A stretch of DNA of 32,698 bases from positions 1-32,698 of the forward strand of contig CAVGIZ010000001.1 of NCBI GenBank assembly GCA_963629255.1, read 5' to 3'. Positions within the stretch are counted from its first letter, which is position 1, and each line of letters begins with the position of its first letter. The stretch comes from Anaerovoracaceae bacterium. Its GTDB lineage: Bacteria; Verrucomicrobiota; Kiritimatiellia; RFP12; UBA1067. A program made the translations under genes and the position numbers. This document shows, one piece after another, positions 3,541 through 32,456 of this stretch. The notes below the pieces were generated by a model. That model had not been told where the DNA came from. It did not search any database and saw only the letters and a list, made by a program, of their open reading frames with translations.

Positions 3541-3557
3541 ATATTATACCATATTTC
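3541..3557 (-). promoter_or_regulatory. Extended -10 promoter word (AAATATGGTATAATAT on minus strand) for thrS
   Basis: Reverse complement of atattataccatattt. The TATAAT (3548..3543) lies 23 nt upstream of thrS ATG 3519. The same 14-mer occurs at 7 other loci. Confidence 0.65.
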
Positions 3558-3632: not shown

Positions 3633-3649
3633 AAAATATGGTATAATAT
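3633..3649 (+). promoter_or_regulatory. Extended -10 promoter word AAAATATGGTATAATAT for uvrB
   Basis: TGGTATAAT with TATAAT at 3642-3647. The uvrB ATG at 3660 is only 12 nt downstream. Confidence 0.65.
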
Positions 3650-8437: not shown

Positions 8438-8453
8438 ATATTATACCATATTT
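8438..8453 (-). promoter_or_regulatory. Extended -10 promoter word for the aconitase gene (leaderless geometry)
   Basis: The minus strand reads AAATATGGTATAATAT. TATAAT (8445..8440) is separated from ATG 8430 by 9 nt. TTGAAT lies 17 nt upstream of the -10. Confidence 0.65.
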
Positions 8454-8701: not shown

Positions 8702-8973
8702 GATACACTTTTTCAGATTCAACAATTTCATTTCGTCTTCCTCCAATAAATTCATTCAATGCTCAGACTCATTATCATCCTCGCACCCTCAAGCCCAAAG
8801 TGCCACGGCAATGTGTCTCTTATCATAAAACGGGATAACCGCGGCACTTTTTAGCTGGTTACAGCATTTGATCTTTGACAATTGAATATTTTTGATACGC
8901 GGGAAGAAGCCGCGGAGAGAAAAGTTGCATTCTAACAGAATCCTAACAATTCTCTCATATTCGCCTCACACAG

Positions 8974-10903: not shown

Positions 10904-10917
10904 TTATGGTATAATAT
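10904..10917 (+). promoter_or_regulatory. Extended -10 promoter word TTATGGTATAATAT for the rdgB-HAD gene (leaderless geometry)
   Basis: TATAAT at 10910-10915. ATG 10923 follows after only 7 nt. Confidence 0.65.
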
Positions 10918-12938: not shown

Positions 12939-14695
12939 TTTCTCTGTACCTCCTCATCAAAATTCACGCGCTCCGGCACATTCGGCAAGCACGTTCTCTT
13001 CGCCCTCGCCTCCTTCAATTCCGCCGCGCGATCCTCGTCATACCACCAATACGTCAACACCGCCTCCTCACCCGAAAAACGATCCAGGCACGTCGGCGGC
13101 ATCCCAAACTTGTTCCAATAAATCAGCCTCGTCTCATCCACATGCCACAACAACGCATACGGCACCTCCGCCGCAAGATGCGCATCAATCTCACGATACG
13201 CCTCATTCCTCGTTGCCATATCGGGCATCGTCTTTTCCCGCCGAATCAATTCATCCACCGCGGCACTTTTAAATCCCGTAATGTTGTTCGACCCCTTCCG
13301 CTCCGCCTCGCTTGAAAGCCACATCGCCTCCGGCTCCTTAATCGTCCCCGCGCCCCACGCCGCCCACGTCATATCAAAATTGAACCCATCCATATCCCGC
13401 ATCCACCCCGCAAAATCCTTCCGCACAATCGCCATCCGTATCCCACACGCCCTGAGCGCATGATCAAACAGCGCCAAGAACTTATCCTCCGTCGACGACC
13501 GCGACAAAAACGTAAAGCTAAACACCTTCCCATCCTTCTCCAAAACCCCCTCCGCATTCCGACTAAACCCCGCCTGCGCCAACAACTCCTGCGCCGCCCC
13601 CACATCATACCGCCACAACTCATTCGTACACACATGCTCCCCATCATACAAATCCGTGAAATACGACCTCAACAAAAAATACGCATTCGACATCATCGTC
13701 CGATTCATCGTCTCGCGATCAATCAACATCGCCATCGCCTTCCGCACCCGCACATCATCAAACGGAAACCGCCGCGTATTCATCGCAAATCCCTGAAACC
13801 CAATCGGCGCATGATTCCTCACCCGCCTCTTCAAAAGCCAATTCTTCTCAAACTTCTCCCCATACGTCTCCTGCGCCATAATCCGCGCCGTATACACCGG
13901 ATACACATCAATCGCCTGCGCCTTCAACGCCTCAAACGCATTCTCATTGTCAATGTAATACCTCAAAATAATCCGATCAAAATTATACACATTCCGATAC
14001 GCCTCAAATCCGCCGCGCCACCACGCCCCTTGCCGCCTCCATTCCGCCTCAACCTGCTCCTCTACCCGCGCCAATTCATACGGACCCGACACCACCTCGC
14101 CCACAAAATCAAGCCGATTGAAATCCTTCCCTTCCAAACGATGCCGCGGCAAAATCGGAAATCCCCCCAGCGTAATCAAGTCCCGCCAATTCCGCTCCGC
14201 CTCGCCCTTCTTACGAAACACAACCTTCTCACCATCCACCACCGGCGACTCAAACCCGCCCAACATCACCTTCCAAACCCCCGTATCATTCTTCGCATCC
14301 ATCACCACATCAAACGTCCACTTCACATCCTCCGCCGTCACCCTCTCCCCGTCCGACCATCTCGCACGCTCATCCATCTCAAACACAAACTCTCGCCCAT
14401 CCTCCGACACCTCCCACGCCTTCGCCAGCCCCGGCATCACATCCATCGTCATCGGGTCCATCCCGAGCATCGATTCATACATCAATTCAAACGTCATCCG
14501 CGTGTAAACATTGTTGTCGGTATATCCATTCTGACTCTTCGGCGGCACCGAATTCAATCGTATCGTCCCACCCTTCTTCGCATTCTTCCCCGCCAATGGA
14601 TTCACACGCAAAGCCAAGTCCCGCGGCACTTCTGCCGCGGTCAATACGCTCCCCAACAAAAGGAGAACACAAACCCAATATCCTCGCCTGGTCAT
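12935..14695 (-). CDS. ABC-transporter substrate-binding protein, family 5 (peptide/oligosaccharide type), orphan
   Basis: 586 aa from ATG 14695 (MTRRGYWVCVLLLLGSVLTAAE signal peptide). SBP_bac_5-like sequence: MPGLAKAWEVSEDGREFVFEMDERARWSDGERVTAEDV. The ORF-track ATG at 14704 abuts the -10 box. No permease or ATPase genes are nearby. Confidence 0.8.
   Translation of the reverse strand: MTRRGYWVCVLLLLGSVLTAAEVPRDLALRVNPLAGKNAKKGGTIRLNSVPPKSQNGYTDNNVYTRMTFELMYESMLGMDPMTMDVMPGLAKAWEVSEDGREFVFEMDERARWSDGERVTAEDVKWTFDVVMDAKNDTGVWKVMLGGFESPVVDGEKVVFRKKGEAERNWRDLITLGGFPILPRHRLEGKDFNRLDFVGEVVSGPYELARVEEQVEAEWRRQGAWWRGGFEAYRNVYNFDRIILRYYIDNENAFEALKAQAIDVYPVYTARIMAQETYGEKFEKNWLLKRRVRNHAPIGFQGFAMNTRRFPFDDVRVRKAMAMLIDRETMNRTMMSNAYFLLRSYFTDLYDGEHVCTNELWRYDVGAAQELLAQAGFSRNAEGVLEKDGKVFSFTFLSRSSTEDKFLALFDHALRACGIRMAIVRKDFAGWMRDMDGFNFDMTWAAWGAGTIKEPEAMWLSSEAERKGSNNITGFKSAAVDELIRREKTMPDMATRNEAYREIDAHLAAEVPYALLWHVDETRLIYWNKFGMPPTCLDRFSGEEAVLTYWWYDEDRAAELKEARAKRTCLPNVPERVNFDEEVQRK
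14621..14640. repeat. 20-nt hairpin word CCGCGGCA-CTTC-TGCCGCGG (copy 2)
   Basis: Identical to 6340-6359. Confidence 0.9.
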
Positions 14696-14702
14696 CAACC
14701 AC

Positions 14703-14716
14703 ATATTATACCATAT
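14703..14716 (-). promoter_or_regulatory. Extended -10 promoter word for the solute-binding protein gene (leaderless geometry)
   Basis: The minus strand reads ATATGGTATAATAT. TATAAT (14710..14705) is separated from ATG 14695 by 9 nt. Confidence 0.65.
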
Positions 14717-14774: not shown

Positions 14775-14788
14775 ATATGGTATAATAT
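14775..14788 (+). promoter_or_regulatory. Extended -10 promoter word ATATGGTATAATAT for metK
   Basis: TATAAT at 14781-14786, 42 nt upstream of ATG 14829. Divergent from the promoter at 14703-14716. Confidence 0.65.
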
Positions 14789-14828: not shown

Positions 14829-16007
14829 ATGAATCAGAGCTACATCTTTTCATCGGAGTCCGTCTCCGAAGGCCATCCTGATAAGGTCGCAGACCAAATC
14901 TCGGACGCCATCCTCGACGCGTGCCTCAAGGCCGACCGCTCCGCGCACGTCGCCTGCGAAACCATGGTCGGCCCCGATGTCGTCTTCAACCTCGGCGAAA
15001 TCACTTGCCGCGGCTTCGACAAAATCAACACCGAACACATCGCACGCAAAATCGCCCAAAAGGTCGGCTACGACCGCCCCGAAGAACACTTCAGCTTCGA
15101 TACCTTCGCGTACCATTCCTACTTGCATGGCCAATCCCCTGACATCGCCCGCGGCGTCAATCGCCGCACCGCCGCCAAACAAGGCGCAGGCGACCAAGGC
15201 ATGATGTTCGGCTACGCCACAAATGAGACGCCCGAATTCCTTCCCGCGCCCATCCTCTACGCGCACAAGCTCCTCAAGCACTTCGCGTCCTTGCGCCATT
15301 CAGGCGAACTCCCTTGGCTCCGACCCGATTCCAAAAGCCAACTCTCCATCGTCTATGAAAATGGACGCCCCGTTCGCCTCGACACACTCGTCCTCTCCCA
15401 TCAAACAACGGAAGAAGGCGCCTCCAAAAAACATTATGCCGAGCTCGAACAAATCTGCCGCGACTTCCTCGCCGGCACAAAGCTCCTCACCAACAAAACG
15501 CGCTTCCTCATCAATCCAACAGGTAAGTTCGTCGTCGGCGGCCCTTGCGGCGATTCAGGCCTCACAGGTCGCAAAATCATCGTCGATACCTACGGCGGGT
15601 TTGCCGCGCATGGCGGCGGCGCATTCTCAGGTAAGGACCCTTCTAAGGTGGACCGCTCGGCCGCGTACTACACGCGCTATGCCGCGAAAAACATCGTCGC
15701 TTCTGGCCTCGCCGAACGTTGCCAAATCGAAGTCGCCTACGCCATCGGCGTCGATAAACCCGTCAGCTTCTGCGTGAACACCTTCGGCACCGCGGCACAA
15801 AATGTCACCGAGGCCAAACTCGAAAAAATGCTCCTCTCGGGCAAAATCTTCGACTTCCGCCCCTACGCGATTACGGAGGACTTACACCTCCTCAATCCGC
15901 GCGGCTGGTGCTATCAAGACACCGTCAACTACGGCCACTTCGGGCGCGATATCTTCCCATGGGAAAAACTCAATCGGGTCAAAGCCTTGAAGGCGTGGTT
16001 CAAGTAG
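14829..16007 (+). CDS. metK: S-adenosylmethionine synthase
   Basis: 392 aa. Motifs: SESVSEGHPDKVADQISDAILDA, GAGDQGMMFGYA, GGGAFSGKDPSKVDRSAAY. Confidence 0.95.
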   Translation: MNQSYIFSSESVSEGHPDKVADQISDAILDACLKADRSAHVACETMVGPDVVFNLGEITCRGFDKINTEHIARKIAQKVGYDRPEEHFSFDTFAYHSYLHGQSPDIARGVNRRTAAKQGAGDQGMMFGYATNETPEFLPAPILYAHKLLKHFASLRHSGELPWLRPDSKSQLSIVYENGRPVRLDTLVLSHQTTEEGASKKHYAELEQICRDFLAGTKLLTNKTRFLINPTGKFVVGGPCGDSGLTGRKIIVDTYGGFAAHGGGAFSGKDPSKVDRSAAYYTRYAAKNIVASGLAERCQIEVAYAIGVDKPVSFCVNTFGTAAQNVTEAKLEKMLLSGKIFDFRPYAITEDLHLLNPRGWCYQDTVNYGHFGRDIFPWEKLNRVKALKAWFK

Positions 16008-17041
16008 AACACCTCTACATCCACTTCCCCTTCTGCCGCCGCAAATGCACCTATTGCGCCCTGCATTCGCGCGCCGGCACATCCCAAGATGAACGCGACG
16101 CCTACGTCCGTTCCCTCGCCGCGGCACTTCCCTCCTTCAGCCTCTCCCGCCCACTCAAAACCATCTACTTCGGCGGCGGCTCCCCAGCCCTCTGCAACCT
16201 CTCACCACTCCTCTCCTCCCTCCAAAACTACCTCTCGCCCTCAACCGAATTCACCGTCGAACTCCACCCACTCGACGTCACCCCCAACCTCCTCCAAACC
16301 CTATCCGCACAAGGCGTCAACCGCATCTCCATGGGCGTCCAATCCCTCGACGACGACATCCTCTCTCAAATGGGTCGCGGCTATACTTTCTCTTTCGCGG
16401 AGCGCGCCTTCTCCCTCGTCCGGCAACACGTCGAGAACGCGGGCATCGACCTCATCGTCGGCTACCCAGGCGAAACCGCGGCACTTCTCCCTCGCCACGC
16501 TCGCCTCGCCAACTGGGGCCTCACCCACTGCTCCGTCTACTCCCTCATCCTCGAACCCAAATCCATCCTCTCAAACCTCATCGCCCGCGGCAAATCTCCC
16601 GCGCCTCCCGATGACGACACCACCCTCAACCGTATCGCCATCCTCTCCAAATTCCTTCACGAAATCGGCCTCAACCGCTACGAAATCTCCTCCTACGCCC
16701 GCGAAGGATTTGCCGCGAAGCATAACCTCGCCGTCTGGCGCGGCGAAAATTATCTCGGCCTCGGCGACGGCGCTCATGGCCGCATCGGCCTCAAACGCAC
16801 CCAAAACCTCGCCACCCCTCACGCACATATCGAAGAAGTCTCTCCCGACTTCGACCTAAAAGAACGCACCCTCTTCCGCCTTCGTACCACCGATGGACTC
16901 GACACCGCCCTTCATCCCGAATGGAAAAACGCCCTGGACGATGCCGTCCAAACAGGTCTCCTCACATGCGAAGGCTCCATCTACCGCCTCACCTCCCGCG
17001 GCACCGAAGTCTGCGATTCAATCCTTTCGACCCTCATCTAA
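15959..17041 (+). CDS. hemW: Radical SAM heme chaperone HemW / oxygen-independent coproporphyrinogen oxidase-like protein
   Basis: LYIHFPFCRRKCTYC (CxxxCxxC). HemN-like C-terminal domain. The start is ambiguous: ATG 15959 overlaps metK by 49 nt, GTG 15995 by 13 nt. Neither has a good SD. Confidence 0.8.
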   Translation: MGKTQSGQSLEGVVQVEHLYIHFPFCRRKCTYCALHSRAGTSQDERDAYVRSLAAALPSFSLSRPLKTIYFGGGSPALCNLSPLLSSLQNYLSPSTEFTVELHPLDVTPNLLQTLSAQGVNRISMGVQSLDDDILSQMGRGYTFSFAERAFSLVRQHVENAGIDLIVGYPGETAALLPRHARLANWGLTHCSVYSLILEPKSILSNLIARGKSPAPPDDDTTLNRIAILSKFLHEIGLNRYEISSYAREGFAAKHNLAVWRGENYLGLGDGAHGRIGLKRTQNLATPHAHIEEVSPDFDLKERTLFRLRTTDGLDTALHPEWKNALDDAVQTGLLTCEGSIYRLTSRGTEVCDSILSTLI

Positions 17042-17111
17042 TCCCCCTCAGCTGAGGAATTCCTCCTCCTCCATTAGGAACGTTCACCCAAATACACCAT
17101 AACTTTTATAT

Positions 17112-17268
17112 CTACACCCGGTGCAGCTCATGTCTCCACCCGGTGCAGCTTGTGTCTACACCCGGTGCAACTCGTGTCTACACCCGGTCCAGACATGAGT
17201 TACACCCGGTGCAGACATGAGTTACACCCGGTCCAGATATGAGTTACACCCGGTGCAGCACCAAATTT
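17112..17268. repeat. Seven 22-bp tandem repeats (CACCCGGTGCAG + 10 nt) that also form a ~148-nt imperfect palindrome
   Basis: The CACCCGGT core starts at 17115, 17137, 17159, 17181, 17203, 17225 and 17247, an exact 22-nt period. The variable part of units 1-3 (CTCATGTCT-like) is the reverse complement of that in units 4-6 (AGACATGAG). The symmetry centre is at 17185. Confidence 0.9.
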
Positions 17269-17341
17269 CCCCCCTGGAAAACCTAAACTTCCTTCCTGGA
17301 CACCCCAAACGTCCTCCCCTGCCGCACAAAAAGTGCCGCGG

Positions 17342-17470
17342 TCAAGTGGTTTTCTTCTCTTGCTTCTCAGCTTTTTCCGCGGCAGATTTCTTTATCTGCT
17401 CAAGTATCTCGTGGAAGCGTTTCAGCTCGGCTTCGCGCCCGCCGCGGCGTTCATAATCTCCGTCCGCCAT
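17342..17470 (-). CDS. 42-aa highly charged helical sORF downstream of the glycosyltransferase
   Basis: My translation: MADGDYERRGGREAELKRFHEILEQIKKSAAEKAEKQEKKTT. ATG lies 7 nt after the GT2 stop. GAGGCGGAG is immediately upstream. Below the ORF-track size limit. Confidence 0.35.
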   Translation of the reverse strand: MADGDYERRGGREAELKRFHEILEQIKKSAAEKAEKQEKKTT

Positions 17471-17477
17471 CTCCGCC

Positions 17478-18308
17478 TCACTTCTTTCGATTCTTCAAAT
17501 AGACAAATCCCACCAGCACCCGCTCGCACATCACGCCAACAAACAAAATCGGATGACGCAAAATCTTCCGCCACTTCCCCTTCTCAATAAACACGCCCAA
17601 GTAGCGATAATAAAGCGAGAACTGCTTCTTCACCGCGGGATGATTCGGCCACTTCGCCTGATACGCCGCCATCGAATGCGAATAGTACGCCTTCTTCTCA
17701 AGCACGCGCTTCAACGTCAGCTGGCGTTCATTGTGAATCAAATGATGTTCCAGCACTTCACACTTCACCCCCAACGCCAAGATACGAATATCAAGTTCCC
17801 AATCTTCCGGACCCGCAATCAAGTTCTCATCGTACCCGCCCGTCTTCTCCAACACATCCTTCCGAAAAAGACGCAACGCATCAATGCACGTCCCGTTATA
17901 GAAACTCCGCTCAAAGTTCCGCGCCCGAACCCGAAACCCCGTCCCCGTCCGCACTTCAGGAATCCAATACGCCGCCGTCTTCGCCTCAAACCCCGCGGCA
18001 GTTTTTCCCAGAATCTCCTCCACCGTCTCAGGCGGAATAATCATATCCGCATCAATAATCATCGCCCACGGCGCATGCCCCTTCTGCCAACCCAAATTGC
18101 GTTGCGCGCTCCGCTCCGGACCCTTGTCAAAAACTGCCGCGCCCAACTCCGCGGCAATCTTCTTCGTCTCATCCGTGGACGCATTATCAACGACAATGAC
18201 TTCAACCTTCCCTTGTTCACGCACCGCATCAAAAGAATGAATGCAGGCGGCAATATTTGCCGCCTCATTCTTCGTCGTGATGACCACGGTCAGTTGAAGT
18301 CCCGCCAT
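17478..18308 (-). CDS. Family 2 glycosyltransferase
   Basis: 276 aa from ATG 18308 (the ORF-track GTG at 18323 is the alternative). Motifs: VVITTKNEAANI, VVDNASTDET, IIDADM (DxD). Confidence 0.8.
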   Translation of the reverse strand: MAGLQLTVVITTKNEAANIAACIHSFDAVREQGKVEVIVVDNASTDETKKIAAELGAAVFDKGPERSAQRNLGWQKGHAPWAMIIDADMIIPPETVEEILGKTAAGFEAKTAAYWIPEVRTGTGFRVRARNFERSFYNGTCIDALRLFRKDVLEKTGGYDENLIAGPEDWELDIRILALGVKCEVLEHHLIHNERQLTLKRVLEKKAYYSHSMAAYQAKWPNHPAVKKQFSLYYRYLGVFIEKGKWRKILRHPILFVGVMCERVLVGFVYLKNRKK

Positions 18309-21304: not shown

Positions 21305-21318
21305 ATATTATACCATAT
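21305..21318 (-). promoter_or_regulatory. Extended -10 promoter word for rplM-rpsI
   Basis: The minus strand reads ATATGGTATAATAT. TATAAT at 21312..21307. The leader to ATG 21173 is about 127 nt. Confidence 0.6.
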
Positions 21319-28362: not shown

Positions 28363-28376
28363 ATATTATACCATAT
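28363..28376 (-). promoter_or_regulatory. Extended -10 promoter word for the infC operon
   Basis: The minus strand reads ATATGGTATAATAT. TATAAT (28370..28365) lies 44 nt upstream of ATC 28320. Confidence 0.65.
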
Positions 28377-30491: not shown

Positions 30492-32456
30492 TTATTTCAT
30501 TGTAAAGTCAGCATCGACGACGTCATCGCCATCCTTCTTGTTGCCGCCATTCGCCGCGCCACCATTCGGCGGCGGCGTCCCCGCACCAGCCGCACCCGCG
30601 CCCGGGTTCGCACCCGCGCCCGGGTTCGCACCCGCCGCGCCAGTAGCCCCGGCCGCACCCGCCGAATACATCTCCTGCGCCACAGGTTCCATCGCCTTCA
30701 TCAGCGCCTCCTGCTTCGCCTTGATGGACTCAATCGGTGCCGCCGGCGTCTTCGCCAGCTCCTCCTTCAACGCCTTCAACGCCGCCTCAACCGGCGCCTT
30801 CTTCTCCGCGGCAATCTTATCCCCCGCATCCTTCAGCGTCTTCTCGACCTGGAAGGCCAAGCCATCCGCCTTGTTGCGTTCCTCAACTTCCGCATGACGC
30901 TTCTCATCTTCCGCCGCGTGCGCTTCCGCATCACGACGCATCTTCTCAATCTCTTCCTTGGACAAACCGCCCGCGGCAGTAATCGTAATCTTCTGCTCCT
31001 TCTGCGTCCCAAGATCCTTCGCCGACACATTCAAAATGCCATTCGCATCAATATCGAACGTCACCTCAATCTGCGGCACGCCCCGCGGCGCCGGCGGAAT
31101 CCCATCCAGGTTGAAATTGCCCAAGCTCTTGTTATCACGCGCCATCTTACGATCGCCCTGGAAAATCGCAATCGTCACCGCCGGCTGATTATCCGCCGCC
31201 GTCGAAAACACCTGCGACTTCTTCGTCGGAATCGTCGTGTTGCGCTCAATCAAAGGCGTCATCACACCACCAAGCGTCTCAATCCCGAGCGTCAACGGCG
31301 TCACATCGAGGAGCAACACATCCTTCACTTCGCCCTTCAAAATGCCGCCCTGAATCGCCGCGCCCATCGCAACCACCTCATCCGGGTTCACACCCTTGTG
31401 CGGTTCCTTGCCAAACAAGCTCTTCGCCTTCTCCTGAATAAGCGGCATACGCGTCTGACCACCCACCAAGACAACCTCATCAACCGAACTCAAGTCCGCA
31501 TCCTGCATGCACTTCCGGCACGGCTCGCTCGTCCGATTCACCAAGTCCATCGTCAGCGTCTCCAATTTCGAACGCGTCAAAGACGTCGTCAAATGCTTCG
31601 GACCCGTCGCATCCGCCGTGATGAACGGCAAATTGATGTCATAGCTCGTCGCGCTCGACAACGCGCACTTCGCCTTCTCCGCTTCCTCTTTCAAACGCTG
31701 CAACGCCATCATATCGTTGCCCAAGTCAATCCCCTGCTGCGCCTTGAAGTCCTCGATCATCCACTTCATGATCGCCTGGTCAAGGTCATCGCCACCCAAA
31801 TGCGTATCACCATTCGTCGCCTTCACCTCGAAAACGCCATCGCCAATATCAAGAATCGAAATATCAAACGTGCCGCCACCAAAGTCGTACACCGCAATCT
31901 TCTCGTTTTTCTTCTTGTCGAGTCCATACGCCAAGCTCGCCGCCGTCGGTTCATTCACAATACGCTTCACGTCTAGCCCGGCAATCTTGCCCGCATCCTT
32001 CGTCGCCTGACGCTGCTGGTCGTTGAAGTACGCCGGAACCGTAATCACCGCTTCCGTAATCTTCTCACCCAAAAACGCCTCCGCATCTTCCTTCAACTTC
32101 CGCAACACCATCGCGGAAATCTCCTGCGCCGTGTAAACCTTATCGTTCACCTTCACCGCAGCATCCCCATTCGGCGCCGCCACCACCTCGTACGGAACCA
32201 TCTTAATCTCGTCCGTCATCTCATCAAACCGACGCCCAATGAAACGCTTAATCGAGTAAATCGTCGACTTCGGATTCGTCACCGCCTGACGCTTCGCAGC
32301 CTGACCCACCAAAATCTCACCCGTCTTTGTAAATGCAACAATCGACGGAGTCGTCCGCGCGCCTTCCTTATTAGGAATCACCGTCGCCTCTCCGCCTTCC
32401 ATAACAGCCATACAGCTGTTTGTCGTGCCCAAGTCAATACCAAGTACCTTTGCCAT
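30492..32456 (-). CDS. dnaK: Molecular chaperone DnaK
   Basis: 654 aa from ATG 32456 ([18 protein letters not shown]). Motifs: [24 protein letters not shown]. The 50-codon N-terminal extension in the ORF track (GQ-rich) is an artefact of the upstream GTGGGAC repeats. Confidence 0.97.

Follow-up and report, generated by a model that had tools for sequence, protein, structure and literature searches.

Seven phased units between two operon ends

The DNA analysed here (hereafter the window) is a stretch of 32,698 nucleotides from a Kiritimatiellia genome (assembly GCA_963629255.1, contig CAVGIZ010000001.1), and our subject is an array of seven 22-bp units that it carries between the convergent ends of a hemW-like gene and of the operon that begins with rplM (Table 1). 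The units follow one another head-to-tail, each being composed of a 14-nt core (TACACCCGGTGCAG; variants TCC.., ..GCAA and ..TCCAG) and an 8-nt spacer, and their spacing of 22 bp corresponds to ~2 helical turns. Tandem Repeats Finder, applied to the window, returned a period of 22 with 6.8 copies, and CACCCGGTGCAG was matched seven times with at most one mismatch as compared to 0.10 matches expected, a number reached in 0/100 shuffles. These matches fall exactly where a first-pass annotation, made by a model from the letters alone, had placed seven exact-period 22-bp units with a quasi-palindromic core. The same annotation had described the variable parts of units 1–3 as reverse-complementary to those of units 4–6, which holds with a one-base offset: spacers 4–6 (ACATGAGT, ACATGAGT and ATATGAGT) are the reverse complements of spacers 1–3 (CTCATGTC, CTTGTGTC and CTCGTGTC). 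The whole is a ~150-nt imperfect palindrome with core 4 as its symmetry centre, at the very position (17185) about which symmetry had been proposed. The array also lacks a convincing open reading frame (ORF) and a T-tract, as had been noted; a coding function was rejected because the period is not a multiple of three and the sole ORF (17217–17456, +) is interrupted by TAG in other alleles.

Conserved sequence extends beyond the array on both sides. The left block, kept in all alleles described below despite differing sequence further left, contains two additional TNNACC half-sites, and its final ~10 nt form a 'spacer 0' that mirrors the right block. The latter, a 'spacer 7' followed by a C-run, is kept in alleles A–D, and its AAAT pairs with ATTT of the left block in 6/6 sequences (pairs 51/216 and 52/215). 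A second direct 22-nt repeat adjoins the main array, its copy number not being fixed (two in the window, ~3 in L001, one in L066; L numbers designate related loci). Array, flanking blocks and second repeat all belong to a module of ~255 bp.

The source names of hemW homologues place the organism among uncultured Kiritimatiellae, and Pfam scans of 26 window ORFs depict an ordinary chromosome with housekeeping genes only. To the left of the array lie, in order, a pyridoxal phosphate-dependent decarboxylase gene, thrS, uvrB, and genes for aconitase, an Na/Pi transporter, a Ham1/HAD protein, a methyltransferase and a solute-binding protein, followed by metK and hemW; to its right are a small ORF (sORF) of 42 codons, a GT2 glycosyltransferase gene, a DEAD-box helicase gene, rpsI and rplM and, beyond rplM, genes from thiamin pyrophosphokinase through groEL and dnaK. 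In these scans, no mobile-element, partition, replication or regulator gene was found in the 32.7-kb window. The gap between the hemW stop (17041) and the GT2 stop (17478) does span the 436 nt first reported, but 129 nt of it are the conserved sORF, so that the truly non-coding gap shrinks to 300 nt (17042–17341). Relatives whose hemW is 80–81% identical have another downstream neighbour.

The sORF is the constant neighbour of the array. Its highly charged product is identical in alleles A and B and 81–98% identical in other relatives, differences from L001 being mostly synonymous, and its homologues form only 8 clusters among 5.8 billion proteins. As a binder of the array it was rejected: the same protein accompanies differing cores in A and B, it also occurs without the array, and it has no Pfam match. 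The sORF is probably context rather than a functional partner. At its stop codon, an inverted pair of a 13-mer forms a hairpin with flanking A/T runs, a terminator scan gave a terminator-like match on the + strand (17335–17350), and the same arrangement is found at the sORF end in L067 and L068, both of which lack the array. This hairpin is likely a terminator, perhaps acting in both directions, and marks where the module ends on the right.

Table 1. Coordinates of the array, its flanks and the signals around it (positions in the window)
Feature	Position	Strand	Remark
Array	17113–17258	none	seven 22-bp units; cores T-NN-ACC-C-GGT-NN-A-R; 8-nt spacers, mirrored about 17185
Cores 1–7	17113–17126, 17135–17148, 17157–17170, 17179–17192, 17201–17214, 17223–17236, 17245–17258		
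Unit starts	17113, 17135, 17157, 17179, 17201, 17223, 17245		
Left conserved block TTCACCCAAATACACCATAACTTTTATATC	17083–17112	none	30 nt
Right conserved block CACCAAATTTCCCCCC	17259–17274	none	16 nt
Second direct 22-nt repeat CCTGGAAAACCYAAACGTCCTT	17273–17316	none	within the ~255-bp module
hemW-like radical-SAM gene, 360-aa form	15959–17041	+	left neighbour; next to the array in alleles A, B and C, not in B' or D
42-aa sORF MADGDYERRGGREAELKRFHEILEQIKKSAAEKAEKQEKKTT	17342–17470	−	last gene of the rplM-rpsI-DEAD helicase-GT2 operon
Inverted pair of 13-mer CCGCGGCACTTTT	17319–17389	17329–17341 on −, 17377–17389 on +	hairpin with flanking A/T runs at the sORF stop codon
Extended −10 element TGGTATAAT	3543–3551, 3639–3647, 8440–8448, 10907–10915, 14705–14713, 14778–14786, 21307–21315, 28365–28373	−, +, −, +, −, +, −, −	

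Seven units in every allele of a dispensable module

Relatives were located via contigs encoding hemW, GT2 or the sORF, which yielded four further independent alleles, five with that of the window. The array-bearing set comprises 11 sequences, 6 of them distinct: the window and 10 loci, two of which are the same Logan contig. Allele A (window and L005, the same contig as L008) has the core TACACC-C-GGTGCAG and a period of 22. A period of 23 is seen in allele B (L006, L007, L009 and L010; core TACACC-TA-GGTGTAA, with ACC-C-GGT in unit 6), in allele B' (L066; CCTAGG in all seven cores) and in allele C (L001, GCA_963615135.1; core TTGACC-TA-GGTCAAA, with some TACACC half-sites). Alleles D and D' (L075 and L076; GCA_963651665.1 and GCA_963613115.1) have a period of 22, with TAGACC-G-GGTGCAA in units 1–5 and ..ACC-C-GGT.. 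in units 6–7. The unit count is exactly seven in 11/11 sequences, which refutes a variable-number repeat, one of the roles initially proposed, and the units are orthologous one to one across alleles (spacer 2, for example, is CTTGTGTC or CTTATGTC throughout).

In every allele the array sits at a constant distance just beyond the 3′ end of the sORF, whereas the far neighbour varies: A, B and C have hemW there, B' has an unrelated gene that points outward, and D has a gene with a beta-lactamase domain in convergent orientation. It is thus to the sORF end of the operon, and not to hemW, that the element belongs. Altogether, strains with GT2 genes 91–98% identical show four different left neighbours. 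Alleles C and D (L001 vs L075) are 98–100% identical over the DEAD-GT2 region and the 5′ part of the sORF, but only 56–84% from the sORF 3′ part through the array (56–70% in the array itself), a drop which suggests a recombination breakpoint at the module edge. Given this break inside the sORF and the differing far neighbours, recent recombination explains the C/D contrast, and the pair is unusable as a rate measure.

The array is absent from L067 (GT2 95% identical at the amino acid level; sORF present), from L068–L074 (sORF 81% identical) and from more distant Kiritimatiellae (GT2 ~70% identical; no sORF). L068 has the two neighbours of allele D and both terminator hairpins, minus exactly the ~255-bp module, so that the module is a discrete insertion or deletion. 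The first-pass annotation had named absence or lack of conservation in relatives as the observation that would speak against its element; we do find absence in L067 and L068–L074, but strong constraint wherever the array is present.

Invariant bases beside near-saturated neighbours

Which positions are under constraint? Column variability was counted among alleles A, B, B', C and D (alignment A1). The T, ACC, GGT and A columns of the seven cores showed no variation (0 of 56 columns), while 26 of 28 columns at core positions ±4,5, all 14 at the core centre and 28 of 48 in the spacers were variable; in other words, T..ACC..GGT..A is unchanged in 42 cores from five alleles. Spacers differ by substitutions only, with zero indels across alleles, and the core centre is either a single base (C or G) or the dinucleotide TA, giving the period of 22 or 23. 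The distance from GGT to the next ACC is hence strictly fixed, the distance across the core is not. Conserved contact-type bases at fixed spacing, as looked for in an operator-like array, are thus both present. The left and right blocks, too, are conserved across alleles with different neighbours.

The variable positions do not change independently. Centre states per array are C in all seven units of A, TA in six units and C in one in B, TA in all seven in B' and C, and G in five and C in two in D. Since a change from TA to C is unlikely to have occurred seven times independently, this implies that short patches are copied from one unit to another. Complex, templated mutations are known to arise by template switching at quasi-palindromes (PMC7202029), and we infer that template switching or short-patch conversion underlies the concerted centre changes as well as the double changes between arms reported below.

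Such copying invites a reading without host function: a self-homogenising palindromic satellite. It would have arisen when a short tandem array, duplicated in inverted orientation, landed in a spot kept free of transcription by a terminator on each side, and would persist and evolve by slippage, template switching and gene conversion, with a derivation or mobilisation that may be of the REP/BIME type or that of miniature inverted-repeat transposable elements (MITEs). Its presence or absence is clean (L068–L074, with the neighbours and terminators of allele D, and L067 lack the module), it sits between convergent 3′ ends and outpaces the flanking genes (A and B are 62–86% identical over the array vs ~96% over genes), its concerted centres and arm double changes are what templated mutation predicts, and other intergenic 22-bp tandem arrays exist in the clade. 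Yet if homogenisation were the only force at work, the common core should drift from one lineage to the next, and the core columns are invariant beside near-saturated neighbours; seven units without spacer indels contrast with the one to three copies of the adjoining direct repeat, and the flanking blocks outlast changes of neighbour. Nor did we find terminal inverted repeats (TIRs) or a target-site duplication (TSD) at the boundaries (L075 filled vs L068 empty), a second copy in the window, or a transposase or RAYT-like gene among the Pfam matches. We regard a satellite as unlikely. A MITE or a Tn7/Mu-like mini-element was rejected, as the filled and empty boundaries show neither TIR, TGT...ACA termini nor TSD.

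Two arms that stay complementary

In the window allele, symmetric pairing joins 56 Watson-Crick and 6 G.T pairs out of 75 (83%), close to the ~80% first estimated, and the periodic mismatches noted at the repeat centres are indeed there, with C.C at every core centre. Predicted RNA hairpins reach −83.2 kcal/mol on the + strand (z = −10.2 vs shuffles) and −98.2 kcal/mol on the − strand (z = −10.4), and the predicted DNA hairpin −35.6 kcal/mol (z = −5.5). A long hairpin is predicted for all alleles, the register of minimum free energy (MFE) being shifted by one unit in allele D.

Imposing the mirror pairing on alignment A1 gave standard pairs in 80.5% of cells. Changes on both sides were seen in 15/81 mirror pairs, a count reached by 0/500 shuffles and compared to 0–2 in partner-slid controls, although the sample is small (5 lineages) and relatedness inflates such counts. 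Six of the 15 double-changed pairs lie in spacers, each specific to one spacer pair—for instance C-G to G-C between spacers 1 and 6 in allele D only, and A-T to T-A between spacers 3 and 4—and such pair-specific double changes mean that the two arms stay complementary. The ACC/GGT positions behave differently: compensated changes are missing there, whereas the paired positions next to them vary, often at the cost of pairing. With not even compensated changes at ACC/GGT, the pattern fits sequence-specific recognition rather than a helix. On neither strand are G.U pairs favoured among the mismatches more than GC skew would lead one to expect.

Is the hairpin made as RNA? Promoters stand out in this lineage. 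The window has eight exact copies of TGGTATAAT, an extended −10 element (1.9 expected allowing one mismatch), all of them located ahead of the start of an operon; the element also precedes genes in L003, L004 and L067; judged by sequence and placement, it is a very uniform promoter signal of the lineage. The copies flanking the array are those at 14778 (+, metK-hemW) and 21307 (−, rplM...sORF), with none between them and none in the module of any allele. A promoter of the array's own was accordingly rejected, a sigma-70 scan likewise finding none. The terminator scan detected no intrinsic terminator (stem plus U-tract) within 17083–17320; terminator-like hairpins lie outside the array, at 17319–17389 here and upstream of the module in L075. 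The − strand operon thus meets such a hairpin ahead of the array. The + strand neighbour in allele D ends in an evident stem with a T-run ahead of the module, so that the terminators of both neighbours bracket it, whereas in A, B and C there is no clear terminator between hemW and the array.

Read-through from metK-hemW (+) or from the rplM operon (−) could yield an imperfect hairpin of ~70 bp, with a role in transcript termination or stability or as a double-stranded RNA subject to processing. The great predicted stability on both strands in all alleles, the share of paired cells, the excess of double changes, and the lack of a clear terminator after hemW in A, B and C would all suit such an RNA. 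We nevertheless consider it distinctly improbable. The window has 0 Rfam matches at gathering thresholds, and E-values up to 10 (16950–17550) add only sub-threshold microRNA-precursor hairpin models (24 bits vs thresholds of 90–95); own promoter and U-tract are lacking; and with the D module insulated by both neighbours' terminators and the left neighbour of B' pointing away, the transcription context is not conserved. Moreover, an RNA helix does not account for invariant ACC/GGT without compensation next to paired positions that often break, for C.C or G.G mismatches at all core centres of allele A, for the register shift in D, or for the lack of a strand with an excess of G.U over A.C beyond the GC-skew prediction. 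The hairpin terminator or structured RNA of the first-pass annotation is weakened by the same missing promoter, outlying terminators, non-helical conservation and D register, while the arm covariation behind it is real. Some involvement of a hairpin or cruciform, be it functional or mutational, remains.

One such involvement would be a single-stranded or cruciform DNA hairpin as the functional form, rebuilding ACC/GGT sites for a recombinase, an HUH enzyme, priming or a replication protein, in the manner of integron attC sites, rolling-circle single-strand origins and REP/RAYT substrates. This would join the two strongest signals, invariant short motifs and arm-to-arm covariation; it agrees with the predicted DNA fold, and the four left neighbours among closely related strains mark a rearrangement hot spot. 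The window, however, holds no recombinase, integrase, Rep or RAYT gene and no cassette-like array, none of the known elements of these classes has seven internal periodic cores, and the register is not conserved in D. We deem this form improbable, more so than an RNA.

Related arrays and other repeats

A second copy of the array was found neither in the window nor, beyond one distantly similar ACC-NN-GGT array, in ~125 kb of related sequence. This second array lies upstream of metK (L002:290–369 and L003:769–848; GCA_963651665.1 and GCA_963615395.1) and consists of four direct 22-bp units of CACC-TG-GGTA plus STTTGNRAAAAG, with cores ACCAGGGT, ACCTGGGT, ACCTAGGT and ACCTGGGT. L004, collinear in other respects, lacks it. 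This second array has ACC-NN-GGT and the 22-bp phase in common with the main one, the outer T/A positions being different. By a rough estimate (22 positions × 2 centre lengths / 4^6), ACC-N(1-2)-GGT would occur by chance in ~1% of unrelated 22-bp repeats, so that the agreement of the two arrays in motif and phase hints at one recogniser for both.

A further 22-bp tandem array at L004:10512–10632 comprises 5.5 units of GGCAGAWTTTTTTTCCAATGGC, which derive from CCGCGGCAG, an abundant motif. Arrays of 22-bp period thus seem to recur between genes of the clade.

Wider searches returned nothing orthologous. The allele A pattern gave 7 single matches in unrelated phyla, consistent with chance, in a collection of genome contigs that evidently lacks the genome of the window, and SACCTAGGTS-N13-SACCTAGGTS gave 42 loci in metagenome contigs, none of them orthologous but unrelated direct 23-bp arrays, iteron-like by appearance. 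Several of the metagenomic contigs (L036, L040, L051, L058 and L062, as well as L024, L045 and L065) carry unrelated direct 23-bp arrays with ACCTAGGT cores, one of which is GGTTTGATCAATATCACCTAGGT x5, beside conserved hairpin-like flanks. Viral sequence scans revealed nothing related to the array, BLAST against 72,556 plasmid and 50,697 phage records gave nothing similar, and a literature search found no description of such repeats in Kiritimatiellae.

The cores with a TA centre stand out for another reason. CTAG is the rarest tetranucleotide of the window, with 3 occurrences (14798, 26498 and 31973 only) vs 118 expected from composition and 9.8 under a second-order model, a ~40-fold depletion, and it is equally rare in relatives outside the array. 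Alleles B' and C nevertheless have seven CCTAGG in 160 bp, while A and D have none. There may be a reason for keeping CCTAGG in B and C, A and D may have been cleared of it, or both may apply. The seven copies in B' and C, against such depletion, point to sequence-specific retention. Other TA-containing tetramers (ACTA, CCTA, CTAT and TAGC) are also depleted in the window.

The 13-mer CCGCGGCACTTTT (reverse complement AAAAGTGCCGCGG) that forms the hairpin at the sORF end is itself abundant, with 42 window matches at ≤2 mismatches vs 1.7 expected, about equally on both strands and both within and between genes (e.g. 1335–1347, 8839–8851, 13258–13270 and 17329–17341). Its 8-mer core CGCGGCAS occurs at 1.7–2.3 per kb in the clade (window, L001, L004, L007, L068, L075 and L076), as compared to 0–0.2 per kb in more distant Kiritimatiellae and unrelated loci, and inverted pairs of the 13-mer sit at gene ends, terminator-like. 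In density and behaviour, the motif resembles DNA uptake sequences, of which the Haemophilus core is AAGTGCGGT; a narrow literature search found no relevant report of an uptake sequence in Verrucomicrobia. Finally, a perfect 18-bp tandem repeat (CGCACCCGCGCCCGGGTT x2.5, 100% match) is located at 30591–30635, inside the 3′ part of the dnaK ORF.

Comparison with known element classes

Seven repeats at a 22-bp phase are the classical layout of plasmid iterons—the R6K gamma origin has seven 22-bp iterons—and sites in both orientations occur in some plasmid centromeres. An iteron-type origin, a chromosomal origin or terminus, or a canonical ParB-parS centromere is all the same highly improbable. 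The period is 22–23 bp with seven units; the cores are palindromic and the spacers mirrored, so that the units are not simple direct repeats. The Pfam scans found no rep, parA, parB or parR gene in the window, and there are no adjacent DnaA boxes: the nearest DnaA-box-like 9-mers are at 13983 and 18429, with none at ≤1 mismatch between 13991 and 18429. AT-rich sequence is limited to a ~15-nt patch at 17098–17112, and the parS consensus TGTTNCACGTGAAACA has a single 3-mismatch match in the window, at 15996, which is the chance level. GC skew is strongly and uniformly negative across the whole window (−0.1 to −0.45, + strand C-rich) regardless of gene orientation, with −0.33 just left and −0.30 just right of the array; without a switch in skew, a chromosomal origin or terminus is excluded, and oriC, dif and Ter trap were rejected on this ground together with the missing DnaA-box cluster and parS. 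Plasmid or phage similarity is likewise lacking. Of the protein-binding array that the first-pass annotation had put forward, the general idea fits the comparative data best; its labels 'iteron' and 'centromere' fail for want of rep/par genes, a DnaA-box cluster, parS and a skew switch. Nor is this a CRISPR array: cores measure 14 nt as compared to the ≥23 nt of CRISPR repeats, spacers are 8–9 nt long and mutually related, and the window has no cas genes.

How does the array compare with better-known site clusters? Lambda OR operators are 17 bp long with centres 23–24 bp apart, and phage operator arrays in general (lambda OR/OL, phage 434) consist of 14–17-bp palindromic sites, centres ~22–24 bp apart, on which adjacent dimers can touch and of which few bases per half-site are conserved while others vary. 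The array described here differs in having seven sites and not three, no promoter and no adjacent repressor gene, mirror-symmetric spacers, and a 1-bp difference in half-site spacing between alleles. With plasmid iterons (R6K gamma) and centromere-like arrays (ParR-parC, omega/ParG heptads, the Epstein-Barr virus oriP family of repeats) it has tandem repeats at ~two-turn phasing in common, protein-binding ones in those systems, some of which have ~seven copies or mix direct and inverted orientations, and whose specificity can diverge between relatives; it differs in being chromosomal, among housekeeping genes, without rep/par genes, an AT-rich unwinding element or a skew change. REP/BIME, REPINs and ERIC are likewise extragenic imperfect palindromes, often between convergent genes, in species-specific clusters of alternating orientation that are present or absent at orthologous sites, but they are dispersed in tens to hundreds of copies, whereas here there is no second window copy, only the one distantly similar array in ~125 kb of related sequence, a strict seven, units orthologous across strains, and no RAYT gene seen in the window. 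Lastly, template-switch hot spots at quasi-palindromes (Lovett laboratory; PMC7202029) acquire templated changes that make arms more similar, which would explain the TA-to-C and arm double changes here; they are, however, a mutational process and not an element, and leave fixed ACC/GGT and unit number unexplained. The element is thus real, strongly constrained, lineage-restricted and non-coding, formally near operator, iteron and centromere arrays and REP/BIME, and a member of none of the classes tested.

A phased array of operator-like sites?

What, then, does the array do? The reading we tentatively favour, without holding it to be probable outright, is a phased array of operator-like sites for a sequence-specific DNA-binding protein, acting as DNA. 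The invariance of the T, ACC, GGT and A columns, the fixed number and spacing of units, a dyad of 13–14 bp at ~2-turn phasing, the absence of a promoter and the insulation of allele D all fit a binding array at the DNA level. Palindromes of this size with centres 22–23 bp apart match cooperative operator arrays, and the CCTAGG kept in B' and C and the ACC-NN-GGT array upstream of metK likewise speak for this reading. Seven dyad-symmetric sites, T-NN-ACC-(N1-2)-GGT-NN-A, with centres 22–23 bp or ~two helical turns apart, would be occupied side by side by the protein, in the simplest case a dimer or a pair of monomers reading TNNACC half-sites, and one higher-order nucleoprotein complex would form in a transcriptionally quiet spot between two operon ends. 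Selection would then fix the bases that the protein reads (T, ACC, GGT and A) and the core-to-core distance, leaving unread bases (core ±4,5, the core centre and most spacer positions) to drift. Template switching or short-patch conversion within the quasi-palindrome would carry minor changes between units as well as between arms: as each core is a near-copy and a near-reverse-complement of all others, templated copying would yield both the concerted centres (TA, C or G) and the arm double changes. Candidate roles of the complex are a titration or anchoring site, a centromere-like site, and a roadblock or insulator.

Several observations weigh against operator-like sites. Among the Pfam matches of the window there is no candidate binding protein, the sORF neither co-varying with the cores nor requiring the array. 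The full core motif is absent as single sites from ~125 kb of Kiritimatiellae sequence (some loci redundant), the only exceptions being chance-level matches in coding sequence of L075/L076 and the distant L013. The half-site spacing within the core differs by 1 bp between alleles, and periods of 22 and 23 shift the helical phasing by ~34 degrees per unit, which neither a rigid dimer nor rigid cooperativity would easily accommodate. No promoter lies at the array, and the module is dispensable in close relatives (L067 and L068–L074). Finally, binding of the cores does not need mirrored spacers, yet double changes keep the symmetry; this requires either the assumption of template switching or a real hairpin function. 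A regulon of single sites was rejected, as the core motif was not found elsewhere in the window or in related sequence.

Alternatively, operator-like sites and hairpin might be parts of one new kind of chromosomal nucleoprotein element, a cruciform-capable landing pad of exactly seven sites whose non-contact bases are continuously homogenised within a strain. Such a pad might be used for anchoring or in the way of a centromere, or it might mark strain identity or set up a barrier to recombination, in a clade whose genomes are also densely populated by a motif resembling uptake sequences. CACC-C-GGTG, CACC-TA-GGTG, GACC-TA-GGTC and GACC-G-GGTG would then be strain 'flavours'. We rate such an element about as unlikely as a satellite.

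If a protein does bind, the array is a compact set of strongly selected chromosomal sites with no partner gene beside it, found in a branch of the PVC superphylum that is uncultured, and would indicate a DNA-binding system, so far unrecognised, that serves in anchoring, titration, segregation or insulation. Regardless of what it does, it offers an unusually clean natural case of concerted short-patch evolution inside a quasi-palindrome, and one in which CCTAGG is kept despite a ~40-fold genome-wide depletion of CTAG. The locus thereby provides a handle both for studying template-switch mutagenesis in nature and for finding a binder.

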